A DNA stretch of 51,505 nt, taken from an uncultured Myxococcales bacterium. Lineage in GTDB: Bacteria > UBA10199 > 2-02-FULL-44-16 > JAAZCA01. The position numbers were made by a program, and so were the translations under genes. How positions within the stretch are numbered: the stretch's first letter is position 1; the number at the start of each line of letters is the position of its first letter. The DNA lies in assembly GCA_964410765.1 (NCBI GenBank), contig CAYPII010000003.1, forward strand, positions 1 to 51,505. The letters are read 5' to 3'. Below are positions 7,011-40,781 of the stretch, one piece after another. The notes under the pieces are model-generated. The model was not told the origin of the DNA and did no database searches. It saw only the letters and a program-made list of their open reading frames with translations.

Positions 7011-7015
7011 CAACG

Positions 7016-9323
<2,308 letters not shown>

Positions 9324-9329
9324 GGGGGG

Positions 9330-9608
9330 ATGGTGCACCTGCGGGTGATGACGAAAAAACAGCTGCTCGTCGACGCGGAGATCGCGGCGGTGACGCTCCC
9401 CTGCTGCGCGGGGGAGCGCACGGTGCTCCCGGGGCACGACCTGTTGCTCACCGAGCTCGTGCCGGGCGTCGTGCGCTATCGGACGGCAGACGACCCCGGC
9501 CGGCGGCACGCCCTGGAGGTGCGCATGGGATGCGCGGAGGTGACGCATGCCGCGATACAGGTCTTCGTCACCGCGGGCAAGGTGATCGATGCACACGAAG
9601 GAGGATGA
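9330..9608 (+). CDS. atpC: F-type ATP synthase subunit epsilon, short form (beta-sandwich only)
   Basis: Pattern L.V.T....L.....I..V.LP...GE..VLPGH..L...L.PG, but only 92 aa. It ends where the C-terminal helical hairpin normally begins. Confidence 0.8.
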   Translation: MVHLRVMTKKQLLVDAEIAAVTLPCCAGERTVLPGHDLLLTELVPGVVRYRTADDPGRRHALEVRMGCAEVTHAAIQVFVTAGKVIDAHEGG

Positions 9609-12787: not shown

Positions 12788-12788
12788 C

Positions 12789-14168
12789 GTGAAGGTCGTC
12801 TACTGCGACATCGTCAACATCGACGGACCGATCCTGCAGGTGCGCGGCGTGCACAACGTCGGCATGGGCGAGGAGGCGTTGCTCCCTGGCTACGGCCTGG
12901 CGAAGGTGGTCAAGCTCCAGGGGGATACCGCCTTCATGCAGTCACTCGAGGGGAGTCTGGGCGTGCTCACGACCCAGAAGACCGAGTTCACCGGCCACCC
13001 CTTCGAACTCCCCTTCGACCCGAAGCTCGTGATGGGGCGGGTCTTCGACGGCGTCGGCCGCCCGCGCGACGGGCGCCCCGAGATCACCGGCGAGGAGGTG
13101 CTGGTCGAAGGTCCCGTGGTCAACCCGTATCGTCGCGCGCTCGGGCAGGGCTACATCGAGACGGGGATTCCCTCGATCGACGGCGCGAATACGATCGTGC
13201 GCGGGCAGAAGATCCCGATCTACAAGTTGCCGGGCGAGGACATCAACCACGTCATCGCGCGCATCATCCGGCAGGCGCGCGTGGCGGGGCAGGAGCAGTT
13301 CAGCGTCGTCTTCGGCGGGCTGGGCCTGCTCAACGAGGAGTACCTCTACTTCCGCGACGTCCTGGAGGAGTCGGCGGAGCGCACCGTGATGTGCGTGAAC
13401 CTCGGCAGTGAGTCGCCGATCGAGCGATTGAACGTCCCGCACATCTGCTGTGCGATCGCCGAGCAACTCGCCCTCGTCGGTCAGCACGTGCTGGTGATCA
13501 TCACCGACATGCTCCGCTACGCCGATGCGCTCATGGAGGTCTCCAACGCGCAGGGCAAGATACCCAGCCGCGACGGCTACCCGGGCGACCTCTACTCGCG
13601 GCTCGCGCGCATCTATGAGCGCGCCGTCAACTTCGGCGAGCCGCGCGGGTCGGTGACGATCATCGGGGTCAACTCCGTTCCCGACAACGACCTCTCGCAC
13701 ATCGTGGCGAACCTCACCGGCTACATCACCGAGGGTCAGCTGCCGATCGAGCACGGCCGCTTCGAGATTATGAAGTGCCTCTCGCGCCTCAAGGGCCTCG
13801 TGGTCGGCAAGGAGACGCGCAAGGACCACGGGCCGATCATGGATGCCTGCGTCTCGGCGTACGCCAACGCCCTCTCGTTGCGTGAGCAGCGGGAGATGGG
13901 CTTCTCCATCACCGACGAGGTCGACCTGGCCTACCTGCGCTTCGCCGACGAGTTCGAGGAGCGCTTCCTCCCGGCGAACCAGGATCGGTCGATGGACGAG
14001 ACGCTCGATCTCGGCTGGGAGCTCATCGGACTCCTGCCGCGGCGCGTATTGCGCATTAAGAAGGAGATGCTCGATGAGCGCTACAAGGCGCGCACCGAGC
14101 ACGCGGTCGATCGCAGCGAGGAGGCGCGGGAGAAGGGCGAGCGCGAGGGGGAGGGAGTCGACGCATGA
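12789..14168 (+). CDS. ntpB: V/A-type ATPase subunit B
   Basis: Typical B sequence (GYPGDLYSRLARIYERA, TEGQL). GTG start one nt after the ntpA stop. Confidence 0.92.
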   Translation: MKVVYCDIVNIDGPILQVRGVHNVGMGEEALLPGYGLAKVVKLQGDTAFMQSLEGSLGVLTTQKTEFTGHPFELPFDPKLVMGRVFDGVGRPRDGRPEITGEEVLVEGPVVNPYRRALGQGYIETGIPSIDGANTIVRGQKIPIYKLPGEDINHVIARIIRQARVAGQEQFSVVFGGLGLLNEEYLYFRDVLEESAERTVMCVNLGSESPIERLNVPHICCAIAEQLALVGQHVLVIITDMLRYADALMEVSNAQGKIPSRDGYPGDLYSRLARIYERAVNFGEPRGSVTIIGVNSVPDNDLSHIVANLTGYITEGQLPIEHGRFEIMKCLSRLKGLVVGKETRKDHGPIMDACVSAYANALSLREQREMGFSITDEVDLAYLRFADEFEERFLPANQDRSMDETLDLGWELIGLLPRRVLRIKKEMLDERYKARTEHAVDRSEEAREKGEREGEGVDA

Positions 14169-14758
14169 CGACCGTCTCGAAGGGAGCGCTGCGGACCGCA
14201 AAGCTCAAGGCCGGGCGCCTGATGCGCGCCGTGCCGACGCTCGATTTGCGCCGCAAGCAGCTCAACCGCGAGATCCTCACCTGGGAGGAGGAGGTCGAGC
14301 GAGCGGCGCAGTCCGCCCAGGAGCTGGAGCGCCGCTTCGGGGAGAACCCGCATGCGGTGATCGAGAAGATCGTCTCCGTCGAAGGGGTGGAGACGAAGAC
14401 GACGAACGTCGCGGGCGTCCTACTCGAGGAAGTGGAGCGCGTGCGCTTCGCGCCGATCCGCTTCTCGCTCATCAGCACCCCGCCCTCCTTCGACCTCTTC
14501 GTCTCGCTGCGCCGCGAGTTGCTCGAGGAGCAGGAGCGCCTGGCGTACAAGCGGCGTGCCCTGGAGATACTTCTCGAGGAGCTGATGGTGACGACCCAGC
14601 GGATCAACCTCTTCGAGAAGCGGCTGATCCCGCAATACGAGGGGGAGATTCGCTACATCAAGGGGCGCCTGGAGGACAACGAGCGCGCGAGCGTGATGGT
14701 GGCGAAGATCGCGCAGCGCGAGCGCCTCGCCGAACACGGCGCCTTCGAGTCGGCATAG
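14165..14758 (+). CDS. ntpD: V/A-type ATPase subunit D
   Basis: Coiled-coil protein with PTLDLRRKQL near the N-terminus and a C-terminal LEDNERA. ATGA overlap with ntpB. Confidence 0.85.
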   Translation: MTTVSKGALRTAKLKAGRLMRAVPTLDLRRKQLNREILTWEEEVERAAQSAQELERRFGENPHAVIEKIVSVEGVETKTTNVAGVLLEEVERVRFAPIRFSLISTPPSFDLFVSLRRELLEEQERLAYKRRALEILLEELMVTTQRINLFEKRLIPQYEGEIRYIKGRLEDNERASVMVAKIAQRERLAEHGAFESA

Positions 14759-14779
14759 CCGAATGCGGAGTGCGGAATT

Positions 14780-14810
14780 CAGAATAGAAAATCAGAAGGA
14801 TTTTATTCTG
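14780..14810 (+). other. AT-rich imperfect hairpin between ntpD and ntpI
   Basis: CAGAAT-AG-AAAATC, loop AGAAG, then GATTTT-ATTCTG. It sits in an unusually AT-rich 83-nt spacer inside the operon. Confidence 0.35.
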
Positions 14811-14841
14811 CATGCCGCGGTCCACATTCCGGATTGAAGAT

Positions 14842-16605
14842 ATGGCCATCGTGAAGATGCAGCGCGTGACGGTCGCGACCCTCGCCAAGGAGGGGGAGGC
14901 CCTGCTGCGCCGTCTGCAAGATATCGGCGTCCTCCATCCCGAGCCGGTCGAGGCGGTGGACGAGAACGAGCTCGTCGATCACCTCGAGCACGAGCTGCAC
15001 GTCCAGCGCCAGGTGATCCACGCGCTGGAGGCGGAGAAACCGCGGCATGATGAGCTCCCCTGCCCGACGGTCAGCAACGAGACCTCCTTCGCGAGCGTGG
15101 AGGGGTGGCTCGCCGAGCGGCGCACGCTCGAGGAGCGCATCGCGCGCATTACCGCGGCGGTCCGGCGCCAGGCGATCTACGGCTCCTTCGAACCGCAACA
15201 GGTGGCGTACCTCGCCGAGCGCGGCGTGCAGATCCAGCTCTGGGAGGCCGACGAGGGCGCGGTGGCGCAGGACGCCCTCCCCGACGGCGCGGTCGTACGC
15301 GAGCTCTCCCGTGAGGGGAAGCGGCGCTTCTTCGCGACCGCCGGCGAGGGCGAGCGCATCGCGATCGAGGGGGCGACGGAGGTGGACATCCCCGAGCGGA
15401 GTTTGATTTCGCTCGAGGAGGAGCGTGCGATCTTCGAACGCGAGGCCGACGAGCTCTCACGGCGCATTCGCTGCGCGGCGCTTCAGCTCCCGCGCTTTCG
15501 CCACGAGCACGAGCAGCTGGTCAAGGAACACGACTTCCGCGTCGCGCTCGCCGGTGCCTTCGACGATGAAGCGGTGGCGGCATTCGGCGGCTGGATCCCC
15601 GTCGACGAACTCCCGGAGGCGCGCGACAAACTCGTGCGCTTCTGGGCGCCGGTCGTCGTCGAGGATCGCGACGTGCTCCCCGACGAGGAGCCGCCGGTGA
15701 AGACGCGAAACACTTGGATCGCGCGCATGTTCGAGCCGCTCCTGCACCTGCTCGGCCGCCCCGACTACCGCGGCATCGACCCGGCGCTCTTCTTCGCCCC
15801 CTTCATGATGCTCTTCTTCGGCATCTGCCTGGGCGATGCCGGCTACGGCCTGATGCTGCTGGTCGCCTCGTGGGTGATGCGTCGGCACTTCCTCGCCCGC
15901 GTTCCCGGAATGCGCTTCGTCGCAAACATGACGCTGCTCTTCGGCATCGCGACGACGATCTGGGGGCTTGTCACCGGGTCGATCTTCGGGATCGTTTTCA
16001 AGGAGCGCGACTGGATCCCGCTGGACGTCTCCTCCGATGGCGGCGATCCGATGCTCCTCTTCAAGATCTCGATTGGCCTCGGCGTTGTGCACCTGAGCAT
16101 CGCGCTGCTGATGGCGTGCTTCGCCGCGCACCACTGGCACCGGCGCTTCGAGCGGCTGGGCGTGCTCACCGTCATGTGGGGGGGCGTCTTCGGACTGCTG
16201 CACCTCCCGTACTGGTGGCTGGTGTTGGGCGCGGGGCTGGCGCTCATCCTCTTCTTCAGCTCGAACGCGCGCAACCCCTTCGCGCGCATCGGACTGGGGC
16301 TGTGGGGAATCTACGGCCTCACGGGGCTCTTGGGCGACGTGATGTCGTACGCGCGCCTCTTTGGCCTGGGCATCGCCACCGGCGCGATCGCCTCGGTCGT
16401 CAACATGCTCGCTGGGCAGGTGCGCGAGGCGGTGCCGGTCGCGGGGATCGTCCTGGCGGTTTTGGTGCTGCTCGCGGGGCACGCCTTCAACCTGACGATG
16501 GGGATTATCAGCGCGCTCGTGCACCCGGCGCGCCTGCATGCGGTGGAGGCCTTTCCGAAATGTGTCGAGCTCACCGGCCGTCCGTATGAGCCGCTGTGCC
16601 GATAA
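14842..16605 (+). CDS. ntpI: V/A-type ATPase subunit I (a)
   Basis: N-terminal MAIVKMQRVTV, typical of I subunits, then a cytoplasmic coiled-coil half and a polytopic membrane half with the conserved Arg region (SYARLFGLGIA). The track start 14812 is probably too early. Confidence 0.88.
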   Translation: MAIVKMQRVTVATLAKEGEALLRRLQDIGVLHPEPVEAVDENELVDHLEHELHVQRQVIHALEAEKPRHDELPCPTVSNETSFASVEGWLAERRTLEERIARITAAVRRQAIYGSFEPQQVAYLAERGVQIQLWEADEGAVAQDALPDGAVVRELSREGKRRFFATAGEGERIAIEGATEVDIPERSLISLEEERAIFEREADELSRRIRCAALQLPRFRHEHEQLVKEHDFRVALAGAFDDEAVAAFGGWIPVDELPEARDKLVRFWAPVVVEDRDVLPDEEPPVKTRNTWIARMFEPLLHLLGRPDYRGIDPALFFAPFMMLFFGICLGDAGYGLMLLVASWVMRRHFLARVPGMRFVANMTLLFGIATTIWGLVTGSIFGIVFKERDWIPLDVSSDGGDPMLLFKISIGLGVVHLSIALLMACFAAHHWHRRFERLGVLTVMWGGVFGLLHLPYWWLVLGAGLALILFFSSNARNPFARIGLGLWGIYGLTGLLGDVMSYARLFGLGIATGAIASVVNMLAGQVREAVPVAGIVLAVLVLLAGHAFNLTMGIISALVHPARLHAVEAFPKCVELTGRPYEPLCR

Positions 16606-16630
16606 CGAACGTCTTCGATAAGGAGGAACG

Positions 16631-17038
16631 ATGGATATGAACGTGCTCAATCAGTTGGCCTTCTACATCGGTGTGGGGCTTGGCCTCGCCGGCTCCGCAT
16701 GGGGGCTCTCGATCGCCTTCCAAGCGGCGCTCGGCGTGGGACAACGGCAGTTCTTCGGCGTCCTGCCGCTGGCGGTGCTCCCCTCCACGCAGGGGATCTA
16801 CGCGCTGCTGGGTGGAATCCTCAAGAAGGAGGACTTCGCGACGAACCCGACGATCGGCGGGCTGCTCCTGCTCGTCGGCATCGCGTGTCTCATCAGCGGC
16901 GTCTACCAGGGGAAGGTCTGCGCTGCCGGCGTGCGGGCGATCGGCGAGGAGCGCAACACGCTCGGCAACGGCATCGTGGCGGCGGCCATGCCGGAGACGT
17001 ATGCGGTCTTCAGCTTCGTCTGCCTCTTCCTCCTGTAA
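16631..17038 (+). CDS. ntpK: V/A-type ATPase proteolipid subunit K (c), four-helix type with a Na+-site signature
   Basis: LPSTQGIY, YQGKVCAAG and PETYAV align with E. hirae NtpK LPGTQGLY, AQGKVAAAG and VETYAI. Confidence 0.88.
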   Translation: MDMNVLNQLAFYIGVGLGLAGSAWGLSIAFQAALGVGQRQFFGVLPLAVLPSTQGIYALLGGILKKEDFATNPTIGGLLLLVGIACLISGVYQGKVCAAGVRAIGEERNTLGNGIVAAAMPETYAVFSFVCLFLL

Positions 17039-17113: not shown

Positions 17114-19189
17114 ATGGGTATGAATATGCTGGTGGTCTGGTTGGCACTCGGGGGCGCGGCGCTCGCACTCATCTACGCGGCGATTCTCGCTAGCTCGGTC
17201 TCGCGTCAGGATCCGGGGACGGAGCGGATGCGCGAGGTGGCGAAGGCGATCCGCGAGGGAGCGATGGCCTTCATCGCGCGCGAATACAAGGTGCTCGCGA
17301 TCTTCGTCGTCATCGTCGCCGTGATCTTCGCGCTGGTAAACCAGGGGGCCGTGCGGCTCATCGCCGTCGCCTTCGTTGCCGGGGCCTTCTGTTCCGCGCT
17401 CGCAGGATACCTGGGCATGCGCGTCGCCACGAAGGCGAACGTGCGCACCGCCAACGCCGCGCGCACCTCGCTCAACCGCGCGCTCGGCATCGCTTTCCAC
17501 GGAGGCGCGGTGATGGGGCTCTCGGTCGTGGGGCTGGGCGTATTGGGGCTCGGTGGCCTCTTCCTCCTCTTCTCCGCGATGCACGGCCTCGACACAGCGG
17601 CGCTCAAGAGCACCGTGCTGCCGATCCTCGCCGGCTTTTCGTTCGGCGCCTCCTCCATAGCGCTCTTCGCGCGCGTGGGTGGTGGCATCTACACGAAGGC
17701 GGCAGATGTCGGAGCGGATCTGGTCGGCAAGGTCGAGCAGAACATTCCGGAGGATGACCCGCGCAACCCAGCCACGATCGCCGACAACGTCGGCGACAAC
17801 GTGGGCGATGTCTGCGGCATGGGCGCGGACCTCTTCGAGTCCTACGTCGGCGCGCTCGTCTCGGCCATGGTGCTGGGCACCGTTGCGGGGCTCACCGCGG
17901 TGACGCTGCCGCTGGCCTTCGCCGCCGTCGGCATCATCGCCTCGATCATCGGGACCTTCTTCGTGCGCACGAAGGAGGGGGGCAACCCGCAGAACGCGCT
18001 CAACCTCGGTACATTTCTCGCGGCGATCCTCTTCGTCATCGGCGCCTATTTCGTGGTGAACTGGCTCGCGCCAAACGGGTTTGCGATGGGCGGGCGCTTC
18101 GTCACGCCGCTGCACATCTGGGGCGCGGTCGCCTCAGGGCTCGCGGCGGGCGTCGCGGTGGGACTGCTCACCGAACACTACTGCGCGAAGAACAAGCGCC
18201 CGGTGAACGAGATCGTCGAAGCGACGAAGACGGGGGCTGCCACCGACATCATCGCGGGGCTCGCGGTCGGCATGCGTTCCACTGCGCTTCCGCTCATCGC
18301 GATCGCCATCGCGATCCTGGTGAGCTACCAGCTCGCCGGCCTCTACGGCATCGCGATCGCCGCGCTTGGCATGCTCTCGACCACCGGCATCCAGTTGGCG
18401 GTCGACGCCTACGGCCCGGTCGCCGACAACGCCGGCGGGATTACGGAGATGAGCGAGCTGGGCGAGCAGGTGCGCCAGCGCACCGATTCGCTCGACTCGG
18501 TCGGCAACACGACCGCCGCGATCGGCAAGGGCTTCGCGATTGGCTCGGCCGCACTCACCGCGCTCTCGCTCTTCGCGGCCTTCCGCGAGCAGGCGGGGAT
18601 TCACGAGATCGACCTCACGCGCCCCGATGTGATGGCGGGGCTGCTCGTCGGCGGGATGCTCCCCTTCCTCTTCAGCTCGATGGCGATGCGCGCGGTGGGG
18701 CGCGCGGCCAACAGCATGATCGAGGAGGTGCGCCGCCAGTTCCGCGAGATCACGGGGCTGATGGAGGGCAACGCGCGTGCCGACTATGCGCGCTGCGTCG
18801 ACATCTCTACCGCGGCGGCGATCAAGCAGATGATTCGGCCGGGGTTGCTCGCGATCCTCACGCCGGTGGTCGTCGGCTTCGGGTCGAAGTGGCTCTGGGG
18901 CGATGCCTCCGCACTCGGCGGCCTCCTCGCCGGTGTGACCGTCTCGGGCGTGATGATGGCGATCTTCATGGCCAACGCCGGCGGGGCGTGGGACAACGCG
19001 AAGAAGCAGATTGAGGAGGAACCGAAGGACCCGGCCGCCGGCAAGGGCAAGGGGAGCGCGCGTCATGCCGCAGCGGTGATCGGCGACACGGTCGGCGATC
19101 CGTTCAAGGACACCGCCGGCCCGTCGCTCAATATCCTGATCAAATTGATGAGTGTTCTTTCGTTGGTTATCGCACCGTTGTTGATCTAG
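17114..19189 (+). CDS. hppA: Membrane-integral ion-translocating pyrophosphatase (K+-dependent type, Na+-PPase-like signature)
   Basis: [36 protein letters not shown] and [16 protein letters not shown]. 691 aa. Confidence 0.95.
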
Positions 19190-26092: not shown

Positions 26093-27574
26093 ATGATGCG
26101 TTCACGACACTGGAGGATGATCGGCGTGCCGGTTGCATTTCTCATGCTGGCACTCCTGACGAACTGTGCCGGAGGACAGGTGCGTATGGGAGGTGCCGGG
26201 GAGGAGGGAGAGGGTGTACAACTCGAACAGCTCATCGATACCTCCAAGATTCCCCAGGTTGACGTCGGCATGGGAACTCCGGAGGTGACCGATGCGGTTC
26301 TGAAGAAGAACTTCTGCGAGGCGCGTCCGCCGGATCCCGGATTGGAATGCCCCTCCTGCAATCGACTCCTCCCGCCGAGTGATCGGGATGTGGAGATCAC
26401 CATCGATATGTCGAAGGTGGTGATGACGGAAAAGGCGGCGGCAGGAGAGGTCGAAGGGGAAGAGGTCTCTTCGACCAAGACGGTGACCGTTCGTCCGCCG
26501 GACATCGTCGTGGCCTTCGACGCCGATCGATTCTACGCGGCCCTGGACAACGATGCCTTTGGGGTTGGGATGGGGCTCTTGGGAATGCAATTGGGTAAGC
26601 TCGATGAGATGCTTCAGCAGTTTTTGGGTGTCGAAAATCCCATCGCCGATCGGAAGCTCACGAAAGTCTGCTTTGCCTGTCGGTGGTGGATTCATATGGA
26701 GGATATGGAGCAAAAAGCGGCAAAAGAAACGGAGTACGATGTCTCCAAGGAAGTCAAGAGCGCCGACGTGCCGAAACGGCGTGACGGGATGTTGCCCGAT
26801 TGTGCCGAATTCGTCGTCATTCTGGAGTTCGCGGATGGGACGATCGACAGCGCATTGCTCGATGAACATCTCTCCAAACTGCCGGCGATCGAATCCGAAT
26901 TCGGCAAGATCTATCCGATGGACAAGGAGGGGCTCGGACTCATCTCGGTCGGTGCAGATCGTGTCGCGATGGGAACGCCCGGATACGCCCTCTATGCGGC
27001 GAAGGATACACAGGCGAAGCTCGCTACGGACTCCTGCCCGTATCGGAAGGAGTGGCTCTCCTTCGACCCCTCCATCCTGGAGGCCTTGGCATGCCTACAA
27101 GCGGCGCCGCTCGAAGGGAGTGAGGCCAGCGAGGATCAGTTGCTCTGCGAGATCGATCGCCTTCTGGAACGCGAGGGAGATGACTGGCCCTTCGGCGTCC
27201 AGCCGGCGACCGCGATCAACTATATGACCAGCGTCGAGATCGAAGAGGCGATCCTCGTGGCGGCGCTCGATATCGCCGCGACGGAGGAAGCAAAGCTGTT
27301 GGCCTTTGCCGGCTTTAACACATTTGCCGCCGGCGAGTTGGCGCTGGAGTCGCTGGTCAAACTGCGCCTCGATATCTTTGATCCGATGCGCATCCAGCGG
27401 TTTCTTTTGGAACGGGACGATGCCTGCGAGGAGAAGGAAAAATCGATGATCGAGATGGAATCGTCCATGAAGGATTATGGTTTCAATACGGTCTTCAAGG
27501 ATGCGGAAGTGGAGATGAAGATGGAGTATCAGGAAGAGAGCGTTCCCTCCGAAGCGCCGTTCCCAAAAGAATGA
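26093..27574 (+). CDS. Acidic lipoprotein of unknown function
   Basis: Lipobox LLTNC after a positively charged N-terminus. 493 aa, Asp/Glu-rich, and somewhat lower GC than its neighbours. No family recognised. Confidence 0.75.
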   Translation: MMRSRHWRMIGVPVAFLMLALLTNCAGGQVRMGGAGEEGEGVQLEQLIDTSKIPQVDVGMGTPEVTDAVLKKNFCEARPPDPGLECPSCNRLLPPSDRDVEITIDMSKVVMTEKAAAGEVEGEEVSSTKTVTVRPPDIVVAFDADRFYAALDNDAFGVGMGLLGMQLGKLDEMLQQFLGVENPIADRKLTKVCFACRWWIHMEDMEQKAAKETEYDVSKEVKSADVPKRRDGMLPDCAEFVVILEFADGTIDSALLDEHLSKLPAIESEFGKIYPMDKEGLGLISVGADRVAMGTPGYALYAAKDTQAKLATDSCPYRKEWLSFDPSILEALACLQAAPLEGSEASEDQLLCEIDRLLEREGDDWPFGVQPATAINYMTSVEIEEAILVAALDIAATEEAKLLAFAGFNTFAAGELALESLVKLRLDIFDPMRIQRFLLERDDACEEKEKSMIEMESSMKDYGFNTVFKDAEVEMKMEYQEESVPSEAPFPKE

Positions 27575-28144: not shown

Positions 28145-29326
28145 ATGTCCGGATGGATGCGACGAGCCCTCCCGCTCCTCCTCCTCGCGGCACTCCTCCT
28201 GCTGCCCGCACAGCTTCGAGCGACGGTCGTTCCCGCAAACGAGGCGCTCCTCTCCGCGGTCCCCGGCGCGCATCGCTTCGAGCACATCCTGCGGCCGGTC
28301 GATCACTACGTGCTCTTCGACGCGGCGGGCGCGCGCATCGGCGTCGCCTTCGTCACCACCAGCGTTCCGCCGCAGATCACCGCGTATCGCGGGGAGATCG
28401 ACCTGCTCGTCGGCATCGACCGCGAGGGGCGGGTCGCCTCCGTGCAGCTCCTGGATCATGAGGAGTCACCCGACTACGTCGACCGAATCGTCGCGAGCGG
28501 TCTGTTGGGCGCCTTCGTCGGCCGGAATGCGGCGGAGCATGCGCAGGTCGAGGCGATCACCGGTGCCACGATCACCTCGCGGGCGATGATCGACGATATC
28601 GCGAGCGCGCACGAGCGCGTGATGGCGATGCTCTCCGGCGAGGAGTTCGAAGGGCCGAGCCCGCGCACGAGCATCCCCTGGCTCCCGAGCGTCGCGGTCC
28701 TGTTGGTCCTGGCGCTTGCGTTCATGCGCCTGCGCCGTCCGCGTGACCGGATCCTGCGCGTCGTCACGATGATTGCCGCAGTCGCCGTCGTCGGCGTCTG
28801 GTTCAATACCCCGATCACGATCGGCGATCTCGTCGACCTTCGAAACGGGTCCCTCCCCTCGCTCGCGCGCCTGCCGCTGCTGCTCCTCCTCTTTGCCGTC
28901 GTTGCCGCATTCCTACGTGGCAACCTCTACTGCTGCTTCGTCTGCCCTTTCGGGGCGCTCCAGGAGGGGGCGGCCGCCGTCGGGTTGCCGAAGTGCGCGC
29001 CCTCCGATCGCGCGATACGCGCGCTGCGTTGGCTGCGTTGGATCGTGGCGATCGCCACGATCTACGCCATCGCGGTCATCGGCAGCAGCGCCTTCCGGAC
29101 GATCGAACCCTTCGCCCTTCTCTTCTCGCGTTGGCCGGGGGTGACGACGATCGTTCAGACGGCGGTGATTCTGTTGCTGGCTCTCTTTTTCCGACGCATC
29201 TGGTGCCGTTTCTTCTGTCCGACGGGGCTCATTCTCGATCTGATCGCGATGTTCGGGGCGAAGATCCGTCACCTCCTCTTTCGCCGGAGGAAAGGGAAGA
29301 ATTGTGAACCGAACGAGGCACCATAA
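28145..29326 (+). CDS. Membrane redox protein: signal peptide + FMN-binding domain + NapH/NosR-type CX3CP polyferredoxin-like TM domain
   Basis: Flavinylation-type motif [11 protein letters not shown], multiple TM helices, and two CxxCP motifs ([21 protein letters not shown]). Confidence 0.8.
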
Positions 29327-29624
29327 CGCGCTCCTGGCGCTCGCGGTCGGGGCGGTGCTGGGCGTCACCGGCTGGGCGCTGGCCGTCCGCGAACCGGCCC
29401 TCTTTCGGATCGCGCCGGTCGTCCGCGAGCTCCCCGTCCCGGCGCCGGTCATCGAGGAGGAGGTCACGGAGCCGGTCGAGATCCTTCGCCGACAGCGGCG
29501 TGAACGCCGTCGCGAGCAGCGCCGCGAGCGCCGAGGAAATTCGCGGACCGAACGGATGATCGAATCGGGCGCGCTCTCCGACCATCGCGCCGATTACTGG
29601 GAGCCGGTCGAGGAGGGACGATGA
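29304..29624 (+). CDS. Small single-pass membrane protein with an Arg/Glu-rich tail
   Basis: GTG start after [14 protein letters not shown] and high GC3. It overlaps the upstream gene by 23 nt and the downstream gene by ATGA. Confidence 0.6.
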   Translation: MNRTRHHNALLALAVGAVLGVTGWALAVREPALFRIAPVVRELPVPAPVIEEEVTEPVEILRRQRRERRREQRRERRGNSRTERMIESGALSDHRADYWEPVEEGR

Positions 29625-30595
29625 CGCGGGATGTGCGCTGCGAGCTCTGCTTCCGCTTCTGCCGCATTCCGCCCGGGGGGCGCGGCGACTGCCGCGTGCG
29701 CTACAACCGCGACGGCGAGCTCGTTTCCCTCGTCTACGGCAAGCCCTGCGCCGTGCACGTCGACCCGATCGAGAAGAAGCCGCTCTATCATGTCCTCCCC
29801 GGTTCGCGCGCCTTCTCGATCGCCACCGCCGGCTGCAACGGACACTGCCGCTACTGCCAGAACTGGGAGATCAGCCAGCGCCCGCCGGAGGAGACCGACA
29901 ACGTCGACCTCCCCCCGCAGGCGGTCGTCGCCGGCGCGCGCGAGAGCCGCTCGGCCTCGATCGCCTATACCTACACCGACCCCAACATCTTCTACGAATA
30001 CGCGTACGATACGGCGGCGATCGCACGCGAGCGGGGCTTCAAGAACCTGCTCGTCACAGCGGGGTTCCTCAACGAAAAACCACTGCGCCGGCTCTGTCGC
30101 GTCATCGATGCGGCCAACCTCGACGTCAAGGGCAACGCCGCATTCTACCGCGAGATCGTGCGCGCCGAGCTCAAACCGGTGGAGCGCTTTCTTCGCGTCT
30201 GTCGGGAGGAGGGGGTCTTTGTCGAACTCACGAACCTCATCGTCCCGACGCTCAACGACGCGGAGGCCGACATCCGCTGGCTCGTCGAGCGGGTGCTTCA
30301 GCTCGCCGGACCCGATACGCCGCTGCACTTCTCGCGCTTTCATCCGACCTATCAGCTCGCGCACCTCTATCCGACGCCGGCGGAGACGCTCCTCGGCGCG
30401 GCGGAAGCGGCGCAGGCGATGGGGATGCACTACGTCTACGTGGGGAACCTGCGCACCGATCGCTTTCAGCACACGATCTGTCCTGCGTGCGGCGAGGTCG
30501 TCATCCGGCGGCGCGGCTATCTCCGGCCAACGGTGACGCTGCGCGACGGACGCTGTCCCGCATGTGGCGAGCGTATTCCGGGGATATGGAAATGA
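29621..30595 (+). CDS. AmmeMemoRadiSam system radical SAM enzyme
   Basis: N-terminal Cys cluster C.LC..C.I..G..G.C, DPIEKKPLYH, and the radical SAM motif GCNGHCRYCQNWEIS. Confidence 0.88.
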   Translation: MTRDVRCELCFRFCRIPPGGRGDCRVRYNRDGELVSLVYGKPCAVHVDPIEKKPLYHVLPGSRAFSIATAGCNGHCRYCQNWEISQRPPEETDNVDLPPQAVVAGARESRSASIAYTYTDPNIFYEYAYDTAAIARERGFKNLLVTAGFLNEKPLRRLCRVIDAANLDVKGNAAFYREIVRAELKPVERFLRVCREEGVFVELTNLIVPTLNDAEADIRWLVERVLQLAGPDTPLHFSRFHPTYQLAHLYPTPAETLLGAAEAAQAMGMHYVYVGNLRTDRFQHTICPACGEVVIRRRGYLRPTVTLRDGRCPACGERIPGIWK

Positions 30596-30606
30596 AGGGG
30601 GACGAT

Positions 30607-30768
30607 ATGCGGATGACACGACGGCAGTTCGGCCTGGGGCTTCTGGGGACGATCGCGTCCTTCCTCCTCGGCGGGTGGTGGCTCCGGCGTCGAGGGGAGG
30701 AGCCGCGCGTACCGGCCTCATCCAATCGCGCGCGCTTCTGGCGACGCGCCGATCACCTGGCGGGATAG
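30607..30768 (+). CDS. Mini-ORF consisting essentially of a twin-arginine signal peptide (53 aa)
   Basis: MRMTRRQFGLGLLGTIASFLLGGWW, then a short basic tail. SD AGGGGG lies 5 nt upstream, GC3 is high, and it fills the gap between the rSAM and Memo genes. Confidence 0.5.
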   Translation: MRMTRRQFGLGLLGTIASFLLGGWWLRRRGEEPRVPASSNRARFWRRADHLAG

Positions 30769-30775
30769 GAGGTGT

Positions 30776-32215
30776 ATGATGAAGAGACTCCTTTTGATGT
30801 GCGCGACGGCAGTGCTTATCGTTTTCCTCATCGCCGCTCCGCTCATTGCGAAATCGAAGCGGGTACAGAAACCCGTCGTCGCCGGGACCTTCTACCCGGC
30901 ATCGAAGAGGGAGCTGCGCGCGCAGGTGCGTCGCTTCCTAGCCGAAGCCCCGCGGCGCTCCTATGACGGGCGCGTGATCGGCGTCATCTCGCCGCATGCG
31001 GGGTATCGCTATTCGGGCGTCGTGGCGGGGGCGGCCTTTCGCCAGCTCCAGGACCGCGGCTTTACGCGCGCCATCGTCATCGCCCCGGCGCACCGCGCCC
31101 CGATCGCCGGGATGGCCCTCCTCGATGCGGATGCCTACGAGACGCCGCTCGGGAAGATCCCGATCGACCGAAAGGCGGTGCAGTCCTTTGCGAAAAAACA
31201 CGCGTGGGCATCGATCGATGCGAAGCCCTTTCAGAAGGAGCACGCCCTCGAGGTGGAGTTCCCCTTTCTGCAGGAGGCGCTGGGCGCTTTTACGCTCGTG
31301 CCGATCCTCGCCGGTCGAGCGGAGAAGGAGACGCTCGACGCAATCGCCGAGGCGATTCGTGCCGAGCTGCTCGATGAACGGACCGCGCTCGTGATCTCCA
31401 GCGACCTCTCGCACTATCATTCCTACGCGCAGGCGCGAAAGCGCGACCGCGCCACGCTCGAACTCATCTGTGAAAAGAAGGCAGCGCCTTATCTGACGGC
31501 AGTCCAGACCGACAAGGTGGAGCTCTGCGGTGCGTTGCCGGTCTATCTGATGAAGCGCATCGTCGAGGCGGAGGGGGGATCGCTGGAGCTGATCGAGTAT
31601 GCGAATTCCGGCGATACGGCGGGTGATCGCTCACGCGTCGTGGGCTATGCGGCGCTCGCCGCCGTCGTCCCGGGCGGGATGCTCACGACGAAGCAAAAGG
31701 GGAAGCTGCTCGCACTCGCGCGTGGGAGCGTCGAGGCCCACGTGCGCGGCAAGAAACTCCCGCCCCTGCCGAAGGATGCAGTGCTCAAGCGTGAGGGGGC
31801 GGCCTTCGTCACGCTTCGGAAAAAAGGAGAGCTGCGCGGCTGCATCGGGCAGATCATCGCGACCGGACCACTCGATCAAGCCGTACAGAAGATGGCAGTC
31901 GCCGCGTCGTCGAACGACCCGCGCTTTTCGCCGGTGCGCCTCGACGAGCTGGGCGATCTCTCGGTGGAGGTCTCCGTCCTCACCCCGCCGGAGCCGCTGC
32001 CCGATCCTCGTGCAGTACGCCTGGGTACCGACGGGCTCATCGTCGAGAAGCGAATGCATCGCGGTGTCCTGCTCCCACAGGTGCCGACCGAACAGGGGTG
32101 GACCAAGCACGAGTACCTTGCAGGGATCTGTCGCAAGGCGGGGCTCCCCCCGGCCTGCTGGAAGGACGCACGGCTCGAGCGCTTTCAGGCGATCGTCTTC
32201 GGGGAGCACGAATAA
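30776..32215 (+). CDS. Memo (AmmeMemoRadiSam protein B) - AMMECR1 (protein A) fusion with an N-terminal signal peptide or anchor
   Basis: N-terminal hydrophobic LLLMCATAVLIVFLIAAPLIA. Memo motifs VAGTFYP, SPHAGYRYSG and SSDLSHYH. AMMECR1 motifs GAAFVTLRKKGELRGCIGQI and DPRFSPV. Confidence 0.88.
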   Translation: MMKRLLLMCATAVLIVFLIAAPLIAKSKRVQKPVVAGTFYPASKRELRAQVRRFLAEAPRRSYDGRVIGVISPHAGYRYSGVVAGAAFRQLQDRGFTRAIVIAPAHRAPIAGMALLDADAYETPLGKIPIDRKAVQSFAKKHAWASIDAKPFQKEHALEVEFPFLQEALGAFTLVPILAGRAEKETLDAIAEAIRAELLDERTALVISSDLSHYHSYAQARKRDRATLELICEKKAAPYLTAVQTDKVELCGALPVYLMKRIVEAEGGSLELIEYANSGDTAGDRSRVVGYAALAAVVPGGMLTTKQKGKLLALARGSVEAHVRGKKLPPLPKDAVLKREGAAFVTLRKKGELRGCIGQIIATGPLDQAVQKMAVAASSNDPRFSPVRLDELGDLSVEVSVLTPPEPLPDPRAVRLGTDGLIVEKRMHRGVLLPQVPTEQGWTKHEYLAGICRKAGLPPACWKDARLERFQAIVFGEHE

Positions 32216-32223
32216 GAGATGAA

Positions 32224-32290
32224 TGTCATCCCCGAGAGTTTTCATCGGGGATCCAGTCTGGATTCCCGACTACACCACTCGGGAATGACA
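32224..32290. repeat. REP/MITE-like element copy D: two inverted TGTCAT-hairpin-ATCC units
   Basis: Left unit TGTCATCCCCGA..TCGGGGATCC (32224-32254) and right unit GGATTCCCGA..TCGGGAATGACA (32260-32290). Each has a perfect 8-bp stem, and the termini match as inverted repeats at 11 of 12 positions. It overlaps the last 7 codons of tatC. Confidence 0.6.
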
Positions 32291-33010
32291 ATCTTTTCGC
32301 CACACCCTTCCCACCAGCAGGCCGAGTTCAAAGAGCAGGATGAGCGGCAACGCCAGGGCGATCTGTGTGAAGACGTCGGGTGGGGTGAGAAGTGCAGCGA
32401 GGACGAAGGCGCCGACGACCGCGTAGGGGCGCGCACGCGTGACGCGTACAGACGTCACGAGCCCCAAGCGGATGGCGAGCGCGAGCGCGACGGGGAGCTC
32501 GAAGGCGATGCCGAAGGCGAGGGTGAGGCGCAGAACGATCGCGACGCTCTCGCTCATGCGCGGCAGATAGCTGACCCCCGACGCGGCCATGAGCTCCACC
32601 CCCCAGGCAGCGGCGCGCGGGATGATGAACGCGAAGCAAAAGGCCGCGCCACCGACGAAGAGCAGTCCCGTGACGATGCCGCCCGCGATTGCACGACGAC
32701 GCACGCTGTGTGGCAGCGCGGGGGCGGCGAAGGCGAAGAGCTGCGCGGCCCAGATGGGGGCGGCGAGTATCACACCGCCGACGCAGGCGATCTGGAAGAG
32801 GACAATCCACGACTCGAAGGGGGTGAAGGCGACGAAGGACTGCCCTGGCTGAAGCAAACGGGCGAGCGGTGCGGTGATCAGCCGAAAGAGCGTGGGTGCC
32901 AGGGGGAGCAGCGCCGCGGCGCCGACAAGGATAGCGGCGAGTGAGACGACGAGGCGGCGGCGCAGCTCCGCGAGGTGCGCGGAGAGCGGGAGGGGACGGT
33001 CATCCGACAT
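32270..33010 (-). CDS. tatC: Twin-arginine translocase subunit TatC
   Basis: N-terminal LSAHLAELRRRL and six TM segments. 246 aa. Confidence 0.9.
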   Translation of the reverse strand: MSDDRPLPLSAHLAELRRRLVVSLAAILVGAAALLPLAPTLFRLITAPLARLLQPGQSFVAFTPFESWIVLFQIACVGGVILAAPIWAAQLFAFAAPALPHSVRRRAIAGGIVTGLLFVGGAAFCFAFIIPRAAAWGVELMAASGVSYLPRMSESVAIVLRLTLAFGIAFELPVALALAIRLGLVTSVRVTRARPYAVVGAFVLAALLTPPDVFTQIALALPLILLFELGLLVGRVWRKDCHSRVV

Positions 33011-33167
33011 CGGCGCGCTCCGTCAGGATTCCTCGCTCTGGATCGAGCGGCGCAGCGTGCCCCACGGTGCGCGCGAGGTCGGGGAGGCGCTTCGCGCCGA
33101 AGAGCAGGACGACGACGAGCGCCACGACAGCGATCTCCCAAAAACCAGGTCGAAGGAAGGCGATCAT
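33000..33167 (-). CDS. tatA: Twin-arginine translocase subunit TatA/E (atypical C-terminus)
   Basis: WEIAVVALVVVLLFGAKRLPDLARTVG, with SD AAGGAGG upstream of ATG 33167. The region after the hinge does not look like the usual amphipathic helix. Confidence 0.75.
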   Translation of the reverse strand: MIAFLRPGFWEIAVVALVVVLLFGAKRLPDLARTVGHAAPLDPERGILTERADVG

Positions 33168-33231
33168 GGAGACCTCCTTGCAAAAGATGTCCTCGCATAC
33201 CATAGGGAGAAGGACCTGTCACGGGAGGGAT

Positions 33232-33669
33232 ATGGCCCACCTGATCGTCGATGGCTACAACGCGATACGACGCATTCCGCGCCTGCGGACAGCGGAGCGC
33301 GCGTCGCTCGCGGAGGGGCGCGAGGCGCTGCTGCTGGAGCTGGAGGCCTTTGGCGCGGCGAGCGGCCACCACATCGTCTGCGTCTTCGACGGCGCGGGCT
33401 TTCCCGGGCCCGCCGAGGAGCGCGACGAACTGGAGCGCTTCGCTGGCGTCGACGTCGTCTTCTCGCGGCCAGGACGACCGGCCGACGACCTCGTCGTGGA
33501 GTGGGTGCGGCGCGGACAGAACGGCGCGCTCACCGGCGGGGTGCCGGAGGAGGTCATCGTCGTCAGCGCCGATGGGGAGATTCGCCGCGAGGCGATGGGA
33601 CTCGGGGCCTTCGTGATCGATCCGATGACACTGGCCGCCGCCTTCGACGGCGAGCCGCTCACCTTCTAA
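33232..33669 (+). CDS. NYN-domain / YacP-like (Rae1-type) putative RNase
   Basis: LIVDGYN near the N-terminus and ADDLVVEW...VVSAD later. SD GGGAGGGA lies before ATG 33232. Confidence 0.7.
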   Translation: MAHLIVDGYNAIRRIPRLRTAERASLAEGREALLLELEAFGAASGHHIVCVFDGAGFPGPAEERDELERFAGVDVVFSRPGRPADDLVVEWVRRGQNGALTGGVPEEVIVVSADGEIRREAMGLGAFVIDPMTLAAAFDGEPLTF

Positions 33670-39570: not shown

Positions 39571-39684
39571 AGCGCAGGCATAGCCGATCGCCCTCTCCCC
39601 GGCAAGGGCGCTGTGGCGGGGGCCAGGTGCCGTTTGACCCCCGTCCGGAAATGGCCTACACACTCGGGGAAACGGGAGGTGACG

Positions 39685-40071
39685 ATGCTCGGAGGCGACG
39701 GAGAGGTCGGCAGTCTCGTACGGCGTGCGCTCGTGATGGCGGCGGTGCTGGCCCTGGCGGCGGGGGGGATCGCCTACGTCGCCTATGGCGCGCAGACCGC
39801 GCTCTCGATCGTCGCCGGCGGCGGCGTCGCCATGGCCAGCTTCCTCGTTCTCGTGGCGGTCGTCGTGCGCGGGACCGCCGAGTCCGGCCGCGGGATGCTC
39901 CTGGTGGCGGTCATCGGCATCGGAAAGCTCCTGTTGCTGGGCGCGCTGCTCTGGTGGCTGATTACGCGCGGGCACGTGGCACCGCTCGCGTTTCTCGGCG
40001 GCTTTTCGACGATGGTCGCAGCGCTGCTGATCGAGGCGCTGCGCCTCTCGCGCTCGAAGGCGATGGCGTAA
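39685..40071 (+). CDS. atpI: ATP synthase protein I (AtpI-like small membrane protein)
   Basis: 128 aa with hydrophobic helices, directly preceding atpB with a TAATG overlap. SD GGGAGG. Confidence 0.65.
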   Translation: MLGGDGEVGSLVRRALVMAAVLALAAGGIAYVAYGAQTALSIVAGGGVAMASFLVLVAVVVRGTAESGRGMLLVAVIGIGKLLLLGALLWWLITRGHVAPLAFLGGFSTMVAALLIEALRLSRSKAMA

Positions 40072-40781
40072 TGGAGCGAGTCACCTTCATCGGCTGGGCG
40101 GTCAATGCAGCAGGGCTCCCCCCCTCCTGGAAGGGGCCCTACCTGCACGTCTGCACATCGGTCGTCGTCCTCGCGCTCATCGCGCTGATCGCCGTCGTCG
40201 TCTTCCGGCGGCTCAAACGCATCGACGTGCATCTCGTGCCGAAGGGGAGTACGTCGCTTGTCAACGTCATCGAGATCATCATCGAGGCGCTGCTGCGCAT
40301 CATGACCGACGTGATGGGAAAGGACGCGCGACGTCATTTTCCGATCATCGGCGCGGTCTTCTTCTACATCCTCATCAGCGATCTGGTGGGGGTTATCCCC
40401 GGCTTCTCTCCGTCGACCGACAACATCAACACGAACCTGGCGGTCGCGATCGTCGTCTTTTGCTACTACAACATCGCCGGCATTCGGGCGCACGGCTTGA
40501 GCGGCTATCTGAAGGAGTTCTCCGGGCCGATCATCTGGCTCGCCCCGCTGCTCTTCGTCGTCGAGATCATCAGCCACATCGTTCGGCCGCTCTCGCTCTC
40601 CGTTCGTCTTCTCGGCAACATGTATGGCGATCACCTCGTGGTGGGCATCTTCTCGAACATCGCGCCGATCATCGTCCCAACCGCCTTCATGGCGATGGCC
40701 ATTTTTGTTGCGTTCATCCAGGCCTTCGTGTTTACGCTGCTCTCCGTCATCTACATCGCTTTGGCGACGCGGACGGAGTGA
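40071..40781 (+). CDS. atpB: F-type ATP synthase Fo subunit a
   Basis: Conserved RPLSLSVRLLGNMYGDH (essential Arg) and FIQAFVFTLL. Confidence 0.92.
   Translation: MERVTFIGWAVNAAGLPPSWKGPYLHVCTSVVVLALIALIAVVVFRRLKRIDVHLVPKGSTSLVNVIEIIIEALLRIMTDVMGKDARRHFPIIGAVFFYILISDLVGVIPGFSPSTDNINTNLAVAIVVFCYYNIAGIRAHGLSGYLKEFSGPIIWLAPLLFVVEIISHIVRPLSLSVRLLGNMYGDHLVVGIFSNIAPIIVPTAFMAMAIFVAFIQAFVFTLLSVIYIALATRTE

Follow-up and report, generated by a model that had tools for sequence, protein, structure and literature searches.

The AmmeMemoRadiSam system is defined by three proteins, a radical S-adenosylmethionine (SAM) enzyme, Memo and AMMECR1. Conservation of Memo and AMMECR1 extends from archaea to humans, and they have been linked to disease, but we know of no biochemical function for either of them or for their bacterial radical SAM partner. 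The name AmmeMemoRadiSam was found in the literature in passing mentions only, in six papers. Here, we describe a five-gene operon, g1 to g5, on the forward strand of a 51,505-nucleotide (nt) stretch of DNA from an uncultured Myxococcales bacterium (hereafter, the window) and compare it with its relatives, about 170 related loci in all (denoted by L numbers). As in the described system, all three defining proteins score above the curated cut-offs and are co-located. The differences are that the radical SAM enzyme of the window consists of a core polypeptide, its first strand being encoded in trans in two copies, that components of the system bear export signals, and that a flavin/iron-sulfur (Fe-S) membrane conduit and, in relatives, a SpeE-like membrane protein form part of the module. 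Contexts of the Memo-AMMECR1-radical SAM genes have been addressed by Burroughs et al. 2019, as cited in PMC7159879.

The conduit resembles the 'NapH-like' flavinylated systems (PMC8238504). The protein encoded by g1 has their majority architecture, namely a signal peptide followed by an N-terminal flavin mononucleotide (FMN)-binding domain (FMN_bind) with an ApbE-type motif and by PF12801, and it falls within their operational definition, with PF12801 (Fer4_5, 54.9 bits), FMN_bind (48.5 bits) and an N-terminal hydrophobic segment combined in one protein. For most NapH-like systems the reactions served are unknown, and the module is used modularly; the partners described are NosZ, a reductive dehalogenase, NirS and ExaA, and radical SAM, Memo and AMMECR1 are absent from the main text of that paper and from the supplements searched (PMC8238504). 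The client in the present case would be different, namely a radical SAM enzyme docked via a split-off strand.

Comparison with the better characterized members of these families revealed both similarities and differences. With NosR, g1 shares an FMN domain located outside the cytoplasm and, with NosR and NapH, two cytoplasm-side CX3CP motifs in a polytopic domain; relatives in L008 and L009 further have a C-terminal 2x[4Fe-4S] domain. However, g1 itself carries no ferredoxin domain (Pfam) and has no nos or nap genes nearby, and orthology to either protein was rejected because g1 scores far below the cut-offs of the NosR (NF046105, 45.1 bits versus 1000) and NapH (TIGR02163, 42.1 bits versus 213) models. 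A membrane-anchored, outward-facing domain with covalent FMN, as predicted for g1, is also characteristic of RnfG and NqrC, to which the g1 model is structurally closest (9eri_G, 7zc6_G and 4xhf). Assignment to this family was likewise rejected on the score, as TIGR01947 yields 48.4 bits against a cut-off of 102; the match is confined to the fold of the FMN part, this part is fused in g1 to a NapH-like membrane domain, and no other rnf or nqr subunits are encoded nearby.

Pyruvate formate-lyase (PFL) activase and other radical SAM enzymes are reduced by the FMN protein flavodoxin. In those cases, too, an FMN protein is the one-electron donor to a radical SAM [4Fe-4S] cluster, and the fold of the radical SAM enzyme described here matches that of PFL activase; unlike in flavodoxin, the FMN would be covalent, membrane-tethered and outside the cytoplasm. 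The last point of comparison is hitchhiker export through the twin-arginine translocation (Tat) pathway, exemplified by the small and large subunits of hydrogenase and by formate dehydrogenase, in which a signal-less cofactor protein and a twin-arginine-bearing partner are co-encoded (PMC10924467). The gene arrangement in the window is similar, but the partner would be a peptide of ~50 residues, made up of the signal and one strand of the passenger, and would thus be a split signal peptide instead of a folded subunit of its own. No paper on Tat-exported radical SAM enzymes was found.

A predicted NapH-like flavoprotein leads the operon

The operon occupies positions 28145 to 32215. The five open reading frames (ORFs) that an earlier note had proposed from the DNA letters alone were confirmed on the forward strand, together with their tight spacing: the overlap between g1 and g2 is 23 nt long, that between g2 and g3 is ATGA, and gaps of 11 nt and 7 nt separate g3 from g4 and g4 from g5, respectively. 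The stop codon of g4 sits within the GGAGG site of g5, the start of which lies 181 nt past the end of g3. Searches with profile hidden Markov models (HMMs), which the note had proposed as a check, bore out its principal assignments, with FMN_bind and Fer4_5 matched in g1, TIGR04337 in g3, and TIGR04336 and TIGR04335 in g5, and with no family for g2.

The first gene, g1 (28145-29326, +), encodes an FMN-binding NapH-like membrane protein of 393 amino acids (aa), in which FMN_bind covers residues 81-154 (Pfam) and Fer4_5 is matched in two stretches. Its predicted layout includes an N-terminal signal/anchor, a periplasmic FMN_bind domain, five transmembrane (TM) helices and the two cytoplasm-side CX3CP motifs. 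As previously noticed, the FMN-binding domain contains the flavinylation-type motif ITGATITS (28556-28579, +; residues 138-145), within which TGAT (residues 139-142) conforms to the ApbE-type motif [S/T]GA[S/T] and T142 is the predicted FMN attachment site; G140, A141 and T142 are invariant in 22 g1 homologues. The cysteine motifs of the NosR/NapH-like TM domain (28931-28948, +, C263...C267-P268; and 29204-29221, +, C354...C358-P359), both invariant in the homologue alignment, had been read as CxxCP; the actual spacing is CX3CP, as in NapH and NosR. Loop charges fit a NosR/NapH-type topology with both motifs and the C-terminus inside. The AlphaFold2 (AF2) model of g1 has a predicted local distance difference test (pLDDT) score of 71. 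The label 'polyferredoxin' given to g1 in the earlier note was dropped, since the ferredoxin domain seen in the L008 and L009 relatives is missing from the window protein.

The last gene, g5 (30776-32215, +; 479 aa), encodes a fusion of Memo and AMMECR1 (AmmeMemoRadiSam proteins B and A), as had been recognized, with Pfam scores of 194.8 bits for Memo and 181 bits for AMMECR1 and with TIGR04336 (266.2 bits, cut-off 26) and TIGR04335 (173.1 bits, cut-off 99) both above their cut-offs. Absent from the earlier description was an N-terminal Sec-type signal/anchor, at residues 1-25. This feature is widespread: 58 of the 61 homologous Memo ORFs are hydrophobic at the N-terminus, in 15 cases with a lipobox-like Cys.

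The first strand of the radical SAM enzyme is apparently encoded in trans

The radical SAM enzyme encoded by g3 (29621-30595, +; 324 aa) scores 317.1 bits with TIGR04337 (cut-off 220), in agreement with its initial identification, and is of a core-only form. The alignment starts at model position 12, leaving the polypeptide incomplete over the N-terminal positions of the model, and g3 has neither a signal nor the first strand (TIGR04337 positions 2-11). The ORF begins at the first start codon after a stop codon, its CX3CX2C motif occupies residues 72-79, and 118 of its 120 closest database clusters are likewise 299-341 aa long. Naturally fused radical SAM proteins (L040 and L028) begin at TIGR04337 position 2, and the alignment of g3 reaches the same position when the tail of g2 (+4.7 bits) or that of g4 (+2.5 bits) is joined to it. 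In the AF2 model of a fused homologue, P0377 (pLDDT 88.5, predicted template modelling score 0.84), residues 1-46 are disordered and the first-strand motif is built as an ordered strand, residues 56-58, followed by a strand at residues 64-66 (block pLDDT 88 and 95). The closest solved fold to the radical SAM enzyme is PFL activase (3cb8, template modelling score 0.81). By sequence, a PDB search with g3 returned only a spurious designed-repeat match, and the PFL activase family model TIGR02493 scored 39.4 bits on g3, below 231.75.

A sequencing frameshift between g2 and g3 was considered and rejected, as the split recurs in other phyla and is kept with varied junctions: the window and L002 have the ATGA overlap, L001 and L003 a gap of ~140-190 nt, and L090 one of 9 nt. 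By sequence, then, g3 is a radical SAM core whose missing first strand is carried twice in trans, by g2 and by g4. The 'at least two extra components' anticipated in the earlier note are thus both conserved families, but they are split-off pieces of the radical SAM N-terminus rather than unrelated subunits.

The single-pass membrane protein g2 (29304-29624, +; 106 aa) contains one TM segment (residues 9-28), has homologues in L001-L003 and bears in its tail the first-strand motif of the anchor type, GALSDHRADYWEPV (29568-29609, +). This anchor-type tail, G-x-L-S-x-H-x-A-x-[YFW]-[YW], was found in 22 loci, either on a small protein or as the fused end of g1-like or FMN_bind proteins. Small single-TM proteins carry it in the clade of the window, in L044, L066 and L151 and in many loci with SpeE fusions. 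In L008 and L012 it ends g1-like proteins past one extra TM segment, and ORF calls in L009 instead assign it to a small ORF of its own that lies immediately before the radical SAM gene. It ends FMN_bind-only proteins with no intervening TM segment in L020, L022 and L023, and in L028, L038, L046 and L080 it is fused ahead of the radical SAM domain, behind a TM anchor.

The mini-protein g4, of 53 aa, is encoded from the ATG at 30607 to the stop at 30768 (+); its sequence begins MRMTRRQFGLGLL, it is preceded by its own ribosome-binding site AAGGGGGA, and its ORF is nested in a longer stop-to-stop frame. It combines a twin-arginine-type signal (TRRQFGL) and a hydrophobic stretch with the C-terminal first-strand motif NRARFWRRADHLAG, so that the original designation of a 'Tat-signal-only' ORF had missed its conserved C-terminus. 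The family HMM, which g4 matches with 65.5 bits, describes proteins of 43-60 aa with the pattern T-R-[RK]-x-F-L-K, a hydrophobic stretch and the C-terminus K-E-A-[RK]-[YF]-[YW]-x-x-L-A-G followed directly by the stop. In the 90% database, it retrieved 129 clusters of 40-98 aa, none with a Pfam domain, for which the source names, where given, are hypothetical, apart from two evidently mistaken JGI labels. An exhaustive search of 1.84 billion proteins (50% library) yielded 190 representatives, nearly all 40-100 aa long and matched through to the C-terminus, and all 3 mini-proteins looked up on long contigs directly follow a Radical_SAM gene. The possibility that g4 is a chance ORF in GC-rich DNA was rejected in view of its ribosome-binding site and the 129-190 database clusters. 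Judging from this spread of sequences, the mini-protein family is real and previously unannotated.

In the 80 loci sampled by similarity of the radical SAM enzyme (one genome per species, many phyla), ~45 radical SAM homologues have an N-terminal extension consisting of S/T-R-R-x-F-L-K, a hydrophobic stretch, a linker and E-A-x-[YF]-[YW]-x-x-L, the last segment directly preceding the conserved V-x-C-x-L-C start of the core. The mini-ORF HMM also matches the first ~50 residues of these fused enzymes. Conversely, a mini-ORF is located 3-181 nt downstream in 16 of the 22 radical SAM genes without an N-terminal extension, versus 0 of the 58 with one. The cut-off of the Tat-signal model TIGR01409 (16.7 bits) was reached or exceeded by 6 of 7 fused N-termini (scores of 14.3-25.1 bits), and other mini-proteins scored 11.7 and 14.7 bits; g4 was assigned to the Tat type because of its TRRQFGL motif and its homology. 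In L003, the mini-ORF and the Memo-AMMECR1 gene are separated by a GIY-YIG gene together with repeats that code for ARFFAALRMTSK (L003:10377-10800), and the Memo-AMMECR1 ORF has an extended length of 599 aa; the insertion looks mobile.

The FMN/NapH-like gene accompanies the radical SAM gene in several phyla

In addition to the 80 genome loci, we sampled 80 metagenome loci by similarity to the g1 alignment. To find FMN genes near the radical SAM gene, HMMs were prepared for each half of g1, and the architectures were then checked with Pfam. Among 5.8 billion proteins, about 22 are close relatives of g1 (42-54% identity, one at 89%), all from metagenomes or metagenome-assembled genomes (MAGs). 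The closest named relatives of the window are MAGs labelled 'Proteobacteria bacterium' and 'Desulfobacteraceae bacterium'. The clade of the window has the order dtd (opposite strand), FMN/NapH-like gene, small TM protein, radical SAM, mini-ORF and Memo-AMMECR1. The five-gene order is kept in every contig of this clade with enough flank (L001, L002, L003, L090 and, in part, L092, the last two from the metagenome sample), and the genes downstream of the module differ among them.

Outside this clade, a gene for FMN_bind or FMN_bind+Fer4_5 is located immediately upstream of the radical SAM gene, on the same strand, in 10 of the 80 genome loci, from Elusimicrobia (L008), Planctomycetota (L009 and L080), Omnitrophota (L012, L044, L020, L022 and L023), a MAG labelled Chlamydiae (L028) and Auribacterota (L046); in an eleventh locus, L039, the FMN module is fused to the neighbouring gene. 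From the other side, the radical SAM gene is adjacent in 31 of the 80 g1-like metagenome loci. The upstream proteins are FMN_bind + Fer4_5 in L012 and L044 (Pfam), FMN_bind + Fer4_5 followed by a C-terminal 2x[4Fe-4S] domain in L008 and L009 (Pfam), and FMN_bind alone in L020 (Pfam) as well as L022 and L023 (HMMs from the g1 halves). Upstream of TM-anchored radical SAM enzymes, fusions of DsbD_2, FMN_bind and Fer4_5 are encoded (L028:5585-7252, L046:1744-3435 and L080:3370-5148), DsbD_2 being a CcdA-like thiol-disulfide membrane domain. Fusions in these loci join g1 to the g2-type tail, FMN_bind to the g2-type tail, and a SpeE-like protein to FMN_bind and the NapH-like domain, linking the FMN module physically with the system.

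The gene order is therefore beyond chance, recurring in independent contigs and several phyla, and the link between the FMN/CX3CP gene and the radical SAM gene, which the earlier note had allowed might be peculiar to this genome, is found across phyla. In a rough neighbour-joining tree of g1-like proteins, those linked to radical SAM genes fall into several clades, with unlinked clades interspersed, among them a P0024-like clade next to priA and generic forms of 380-420 aa; neither this P0024-like clade nor P0025 and P0027, two distant homologues of g1, showed a link to the system. Apart from lineage synteny, no further recurrent family emerged when 98 other neighbours from 25 linked loci were surveyed with Pfam. 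Taken together, direct functional coupling between g1 and the radical SAM enzyme is very probable.

The distribution of g1-type genes follows the form of the radical SAM enzyme: they are present in 11 of the 32 loci with a signal-less or TM-anchored enzyme versus 0 of the 47 Tat-type loci. About 20 Tat-type enzymes carry a CxxCH motif in their extension. Mutual exclusion of this kind, together with the CxxCH extensions, suggests alternative electron-entry modules, which would echo the modular use of flavins and cytochromes to which Meheust et al. 2021 drew attention (PMC8238504). The CxxCH, a haem-c-type motif, is located on an insert of ~30 aa, with further His residues, between the first-strand motif and the core (L011, L016, L018, L025, L043, L055, L058-L060, L062, L067, L071, L073-L075, L081, L082, L085 and L086). 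All of these loci lack an FMN/NapH gene, and the insert may represent an alternative site of electron entry. By eye only, we also noticed in Omnitrophota an Lgt-like ORF (prolipoprotein diacylglyceryl transferase) just upstream of the FMN or g2-type gene (L022:8750-9490, L023:8664-9428, L044:5240-6004 and L066:4509-5237), preceded in L022 and L044 by a signal-bearing ORF of ~215-227 aa.

A SpeE-like membrane protein is a frequent partner

A polytopic, spermidine-synthase-like (SpeE-like) membrane protein of ~730 aa, with a central Spermine_synth-like domain, adjoins the radical SAM gene in ~47 of 84 loci and is a commoner partner of this enzyme than the FMN/NapH module. It consists of a TM bundle, a soluble domain of ~315 aa and a second TM bundle, and is encoded, for instance, at L001:12346-14547 (-), as well as in L002, L008, L009, L012, L013, L017, L019-L021, L023, L027, L028 and many others. 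There is no SpeE-like gene within the 51.5-kb window. In L039 and 25 metagenome loci, the SpeE-like protein is fused to FMN_bind and the NapH-like domain. Triple fusions, of 1170-1590 aa, were recorded at L039:16414-20259 and L096:807-4322 and in L100, L107-L109, L113, L115, L119, L120, L122, L124, L128, L130, L133, L136-L138, L144, L150, L152, L158 and L159; the radical SAM and Memo-AMMECR1 genes are adjacent in almost all of these, and L122 (6-kb flanks) lacks the radical SAM gene.

Memo-AMMECR1 is a less constant companion, with no such gene within 10 kb in 35 of the 80 genome loci, several g1-linked loci included. The FMN/NapH conduit thus tracks the radical SAM enzyme and the SpeE-like membrane protein rather than Memo-AMMECR1 as such.

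Two loci encode a polyprenyl synthase directly after the mini-ORF (L168:6162-7145 and L170:6180-7163) and, by eye, the same is probably true of L017 and L019; a convergent SpeE-like gene is located behind the polyprenyl synthase. This position hints at an isoprenoid substrate, and we consider that the substrate is probably membrane-bound and isoprenoid-related. In the abstract of the Burroughs et al. study, extended Memo-AMMECR1-radical SAM contexts are reportedly linked to isoprenoid and base modification. The novelty of the context described here is accordingly claimed with reservation, as Burroughs et al. 2019 may mention part of it.

Surroundings of the operon

Upstream, the operon is flanked by the divergent dtd gene and, downstream, by tatC (32270-33010, -; Pfam TatC, 171 bits) and tatA (33000-33203, -; Pfam TatA_B_E, 43.3 bits), both of which converge on it. 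The convergent tatC/tatA pair is suggestive beside a Tat-type mini-protein, yet it is not recurrent in relatives: TatC was no recurrent neighbour in 25 related loci, and membership of the pair in the module is unsupported. A scan for promoters and terminators was uninformative, the counts being those of shuffled sequence. Near the module, the window also contains a YacP-like NYN-domain gene (32941-33669, +; Pfam); similar genes were noticed by eye near the module in L020:6590-7093 and L022:6711-7202, which may be coincidence. A 493-aa ORF with no Pfam family and a lower GC content (0.59 versus ~0.66) is located at 26093-27574 (+), and a comparable ORF (500 aa, no Pfam) lies between the flavin adenine dinucleotide (FAD) oxidase and dtd genes of L001. 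Farther away, at 7007-9608, 11030-17038, 17114-19189 and 39627-40781, the window apparently encodes parts of an F-type ATP synthase, with ATP-synt_A confirmed at 39627-40781, and, by N-terminal sequence only, a V/A-type ATPase operon and a membrane pyrophosphatase.

Discussion

We tentatively propose that the operon encodes a periplasm-facing AmmeMemoRadiSam system, located on the outer face of the cytoplasmic membrane and equipped with its own electron supply. In this model, g3 would fold and receive its Fe-S clusters in the cytoplasm, bind the g4 tail by strand addition and be carried through the Tat translocon as a hitchhiker. Once outside, the g2 tail would hold g3 at the membrane beside the FMN domain of g1, which would take electrons from a cytoplasmic or membrane donor, via the CX3CP-bound Fe-S site, to its covalent FMN, and the latter would reduce the [4Fe-4S] cluster of g3 in the role of flavodoxin. 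The exported Memo-AMMECR1 protein would act on the same substrate as g3, as would, in most relatives, the polytopic SpeE-like membrane protein. The earlier note had suggested a dedicated membrane electron conduit; the underlying link between g1 and the radical SAM enzyme is supported by the survey, and electron delivery to the radical SAM cluster, like all other steps of the model, is deduced from sequence.

Several indicators point to an outside location. In most relatives, Tat signals are present on the radical SAM enzyme itself, and Sec- or lipoprotein-type N-termini are found on nearly all Memo-AMMECR1 partners. As a class, FMN_bind domains that bear ApbE-type motifs lie outside the cytosol (PMC8238504), and in L020, L022 and L023 the strand tail directly follows FMN_bind. 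The proteins of L008 and L009 are arranged as FMN_bind, TM helices with the CX3CP motifs, the 2x[4Fe-4S] domain, one TM segment and the strand tail; a single TM segment between the cytoplasmic ferredoxin domain and the tail places the tail on the FMN side. The fusions of DsbD_2, FMN_bind and Fer4_5 in L028, L046 and L080 fit an outward flow of reducing power.

Other observations do not fit, and because of them we hold the full model with slightly less than even confidence. To our knowledge, no source of SAM exists outside the cytoplasm. The radical SAM enzymes of L028 and L046 have a fused TM anchor with neither a twin-arginine motif nor a mini-ORF, so that their Fe-S domains would have no obvious route to the periplasm. 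Despite its TRRQFGL motif and hydrophobic stretch, g4 matches neither of the curated Tat models TIGR01409 and PF10518; the g2 tail is arginine-rich, with 18 Arg+Lys, and by the positive-inside rule would favour the cytoplasmic side; and each split system has two strand donors for a single core. A Pfam scan of 25 window ORFs detected no ApbE, which was seen once among the 98 neighbours in 25 related loci (Pfam). Furthermore, topologies were derived from simple hydropathy and charge counts, and the co-occurrence statistics, including the p = 3e-12 for the complementarity between mini-ORF and extension, ignore shared ancestry.

Some of these points would be accommodated if the radical SAM enzyme stayed in the cytoplasm, tethered by g2. 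The CX3CP Fe-S site of g1 would then reduce it or exchange electrons with it, and the FMN would serve the exported Memo-AMMECR1, a redox enzyme needing an extracytoplasmic donor or acceptor, with g4 as a small membrane subunit or a relic. Such an arrangement agrees with the lack of a signal on g3, the cytoplasmic location of SAM and Fe-S assembly, the charge of the g2 tail, the failure of g4 with the curated Tat models, the L028 and L046 anchors and the clear signal on g5. However, the fusions of the tail to g1-like and FMN_bind proteins put the strand motif on the FMN side, ~45 relatives have canonical Tat signals on the radical SAM enzyme itself, the mini-ORF is under clear selection and strictly tied to signal-less enzymes, and g1 tracks the radical SAM gene even where no Memo-AMMECR1 gene is found within 10 kb. 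We therefore regard a cytoplasmic enzyme as unlikely.

A somewhat smaller probability still attaches to the SpeE-like protein being the true partner of the FMN/NapH module. The conduit would in that case drive a redox step of this protein or of its pathway, and adjacency to the radical SAM gene would reflect the shared pathway. Both the frequent adjacency of the SpeE-like gene and the triple fusions, the loci of which almost always hold a radical SAM gene, are in line with this possibility. Yet the window has g1 without a SpeE-like gene, the strand-motif tail that ends g1-like and FMN_bind proteins forms part of the radical SAM enzyme, which argues for direct docking of the latter, and aminopropyl-transferase-type folds are not redox enzymes.

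It is improbable that g2 and g4 are precursor peptides akin to ribosomally synthesized and post-translationally modified peptides, with an aromatic C-terminal motif modified by the radical SAM enzyme. Two small ORFs sharing a conserved C-terminal motif do flank the radical SAM gene, the terminal LAG is more conserved in mini-proteins than the matching residues are in fused enzymes, and relatives of the radical SAM domains of Memo-AMMECR1 systems are known from peptide processing (PMC7159879). Nevertheless, the motif lies within the curated family model (positions 2-11), most members carry it in cis at a fixed spacing, it forms an ordered strand within the enzyme modelled by AF2, and the presence of the mini-ORF is complementary to that of the cis segment. 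Finally, inherited synteny without functional meaning, for which the conservation of the dtd and FAD-oxidase flanks within the window clade might speak, can be dismissed: it is contradicted by the multi-phylum survey, in which flanks outside this clade differ completely while the module persists, as well as by at least three independent fusion architectures and by the other neighbours of the closest unlinked g1 relatives (P0024-like).

Returning to the periplasm-facing system, the locus and its relatives give the AmmeMemoRadiSam proteins a probable location, the membrane and periplasm, and a probable reductant, covalent FMN fed by a NapH-like conduit, and the recurrent SpeE-like protein and the polyprenyl synthase point to a membrane isoprenoid substrate. 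The two small proteins are directly testable for binding and export. With slightly more reserve than for the model itself, we envisage that this could be the first radical SAM family to act outside the cytoplasm, exported by Tat in the folded state, with signal and strand supplied in trans by a mini-protein of ~50 residues in a large sub-branch and with the covalent FMN of a dedicated membrane conduit as reductant. If so, Memo/AMMECR1 chemistry would be located on the surface of the membrane, with an isoprenoid lipid as its probable substrate. Such a location, if confirmed, would overturn the working assumption that radical SAM enzymes act in the cytoplasm alone, the mini-protein would represent a novel means of supplying a Tat signal, and the radical SAM enzyme would be the first client for a sizeable share of the 'NapH-like' flavinylated systems.

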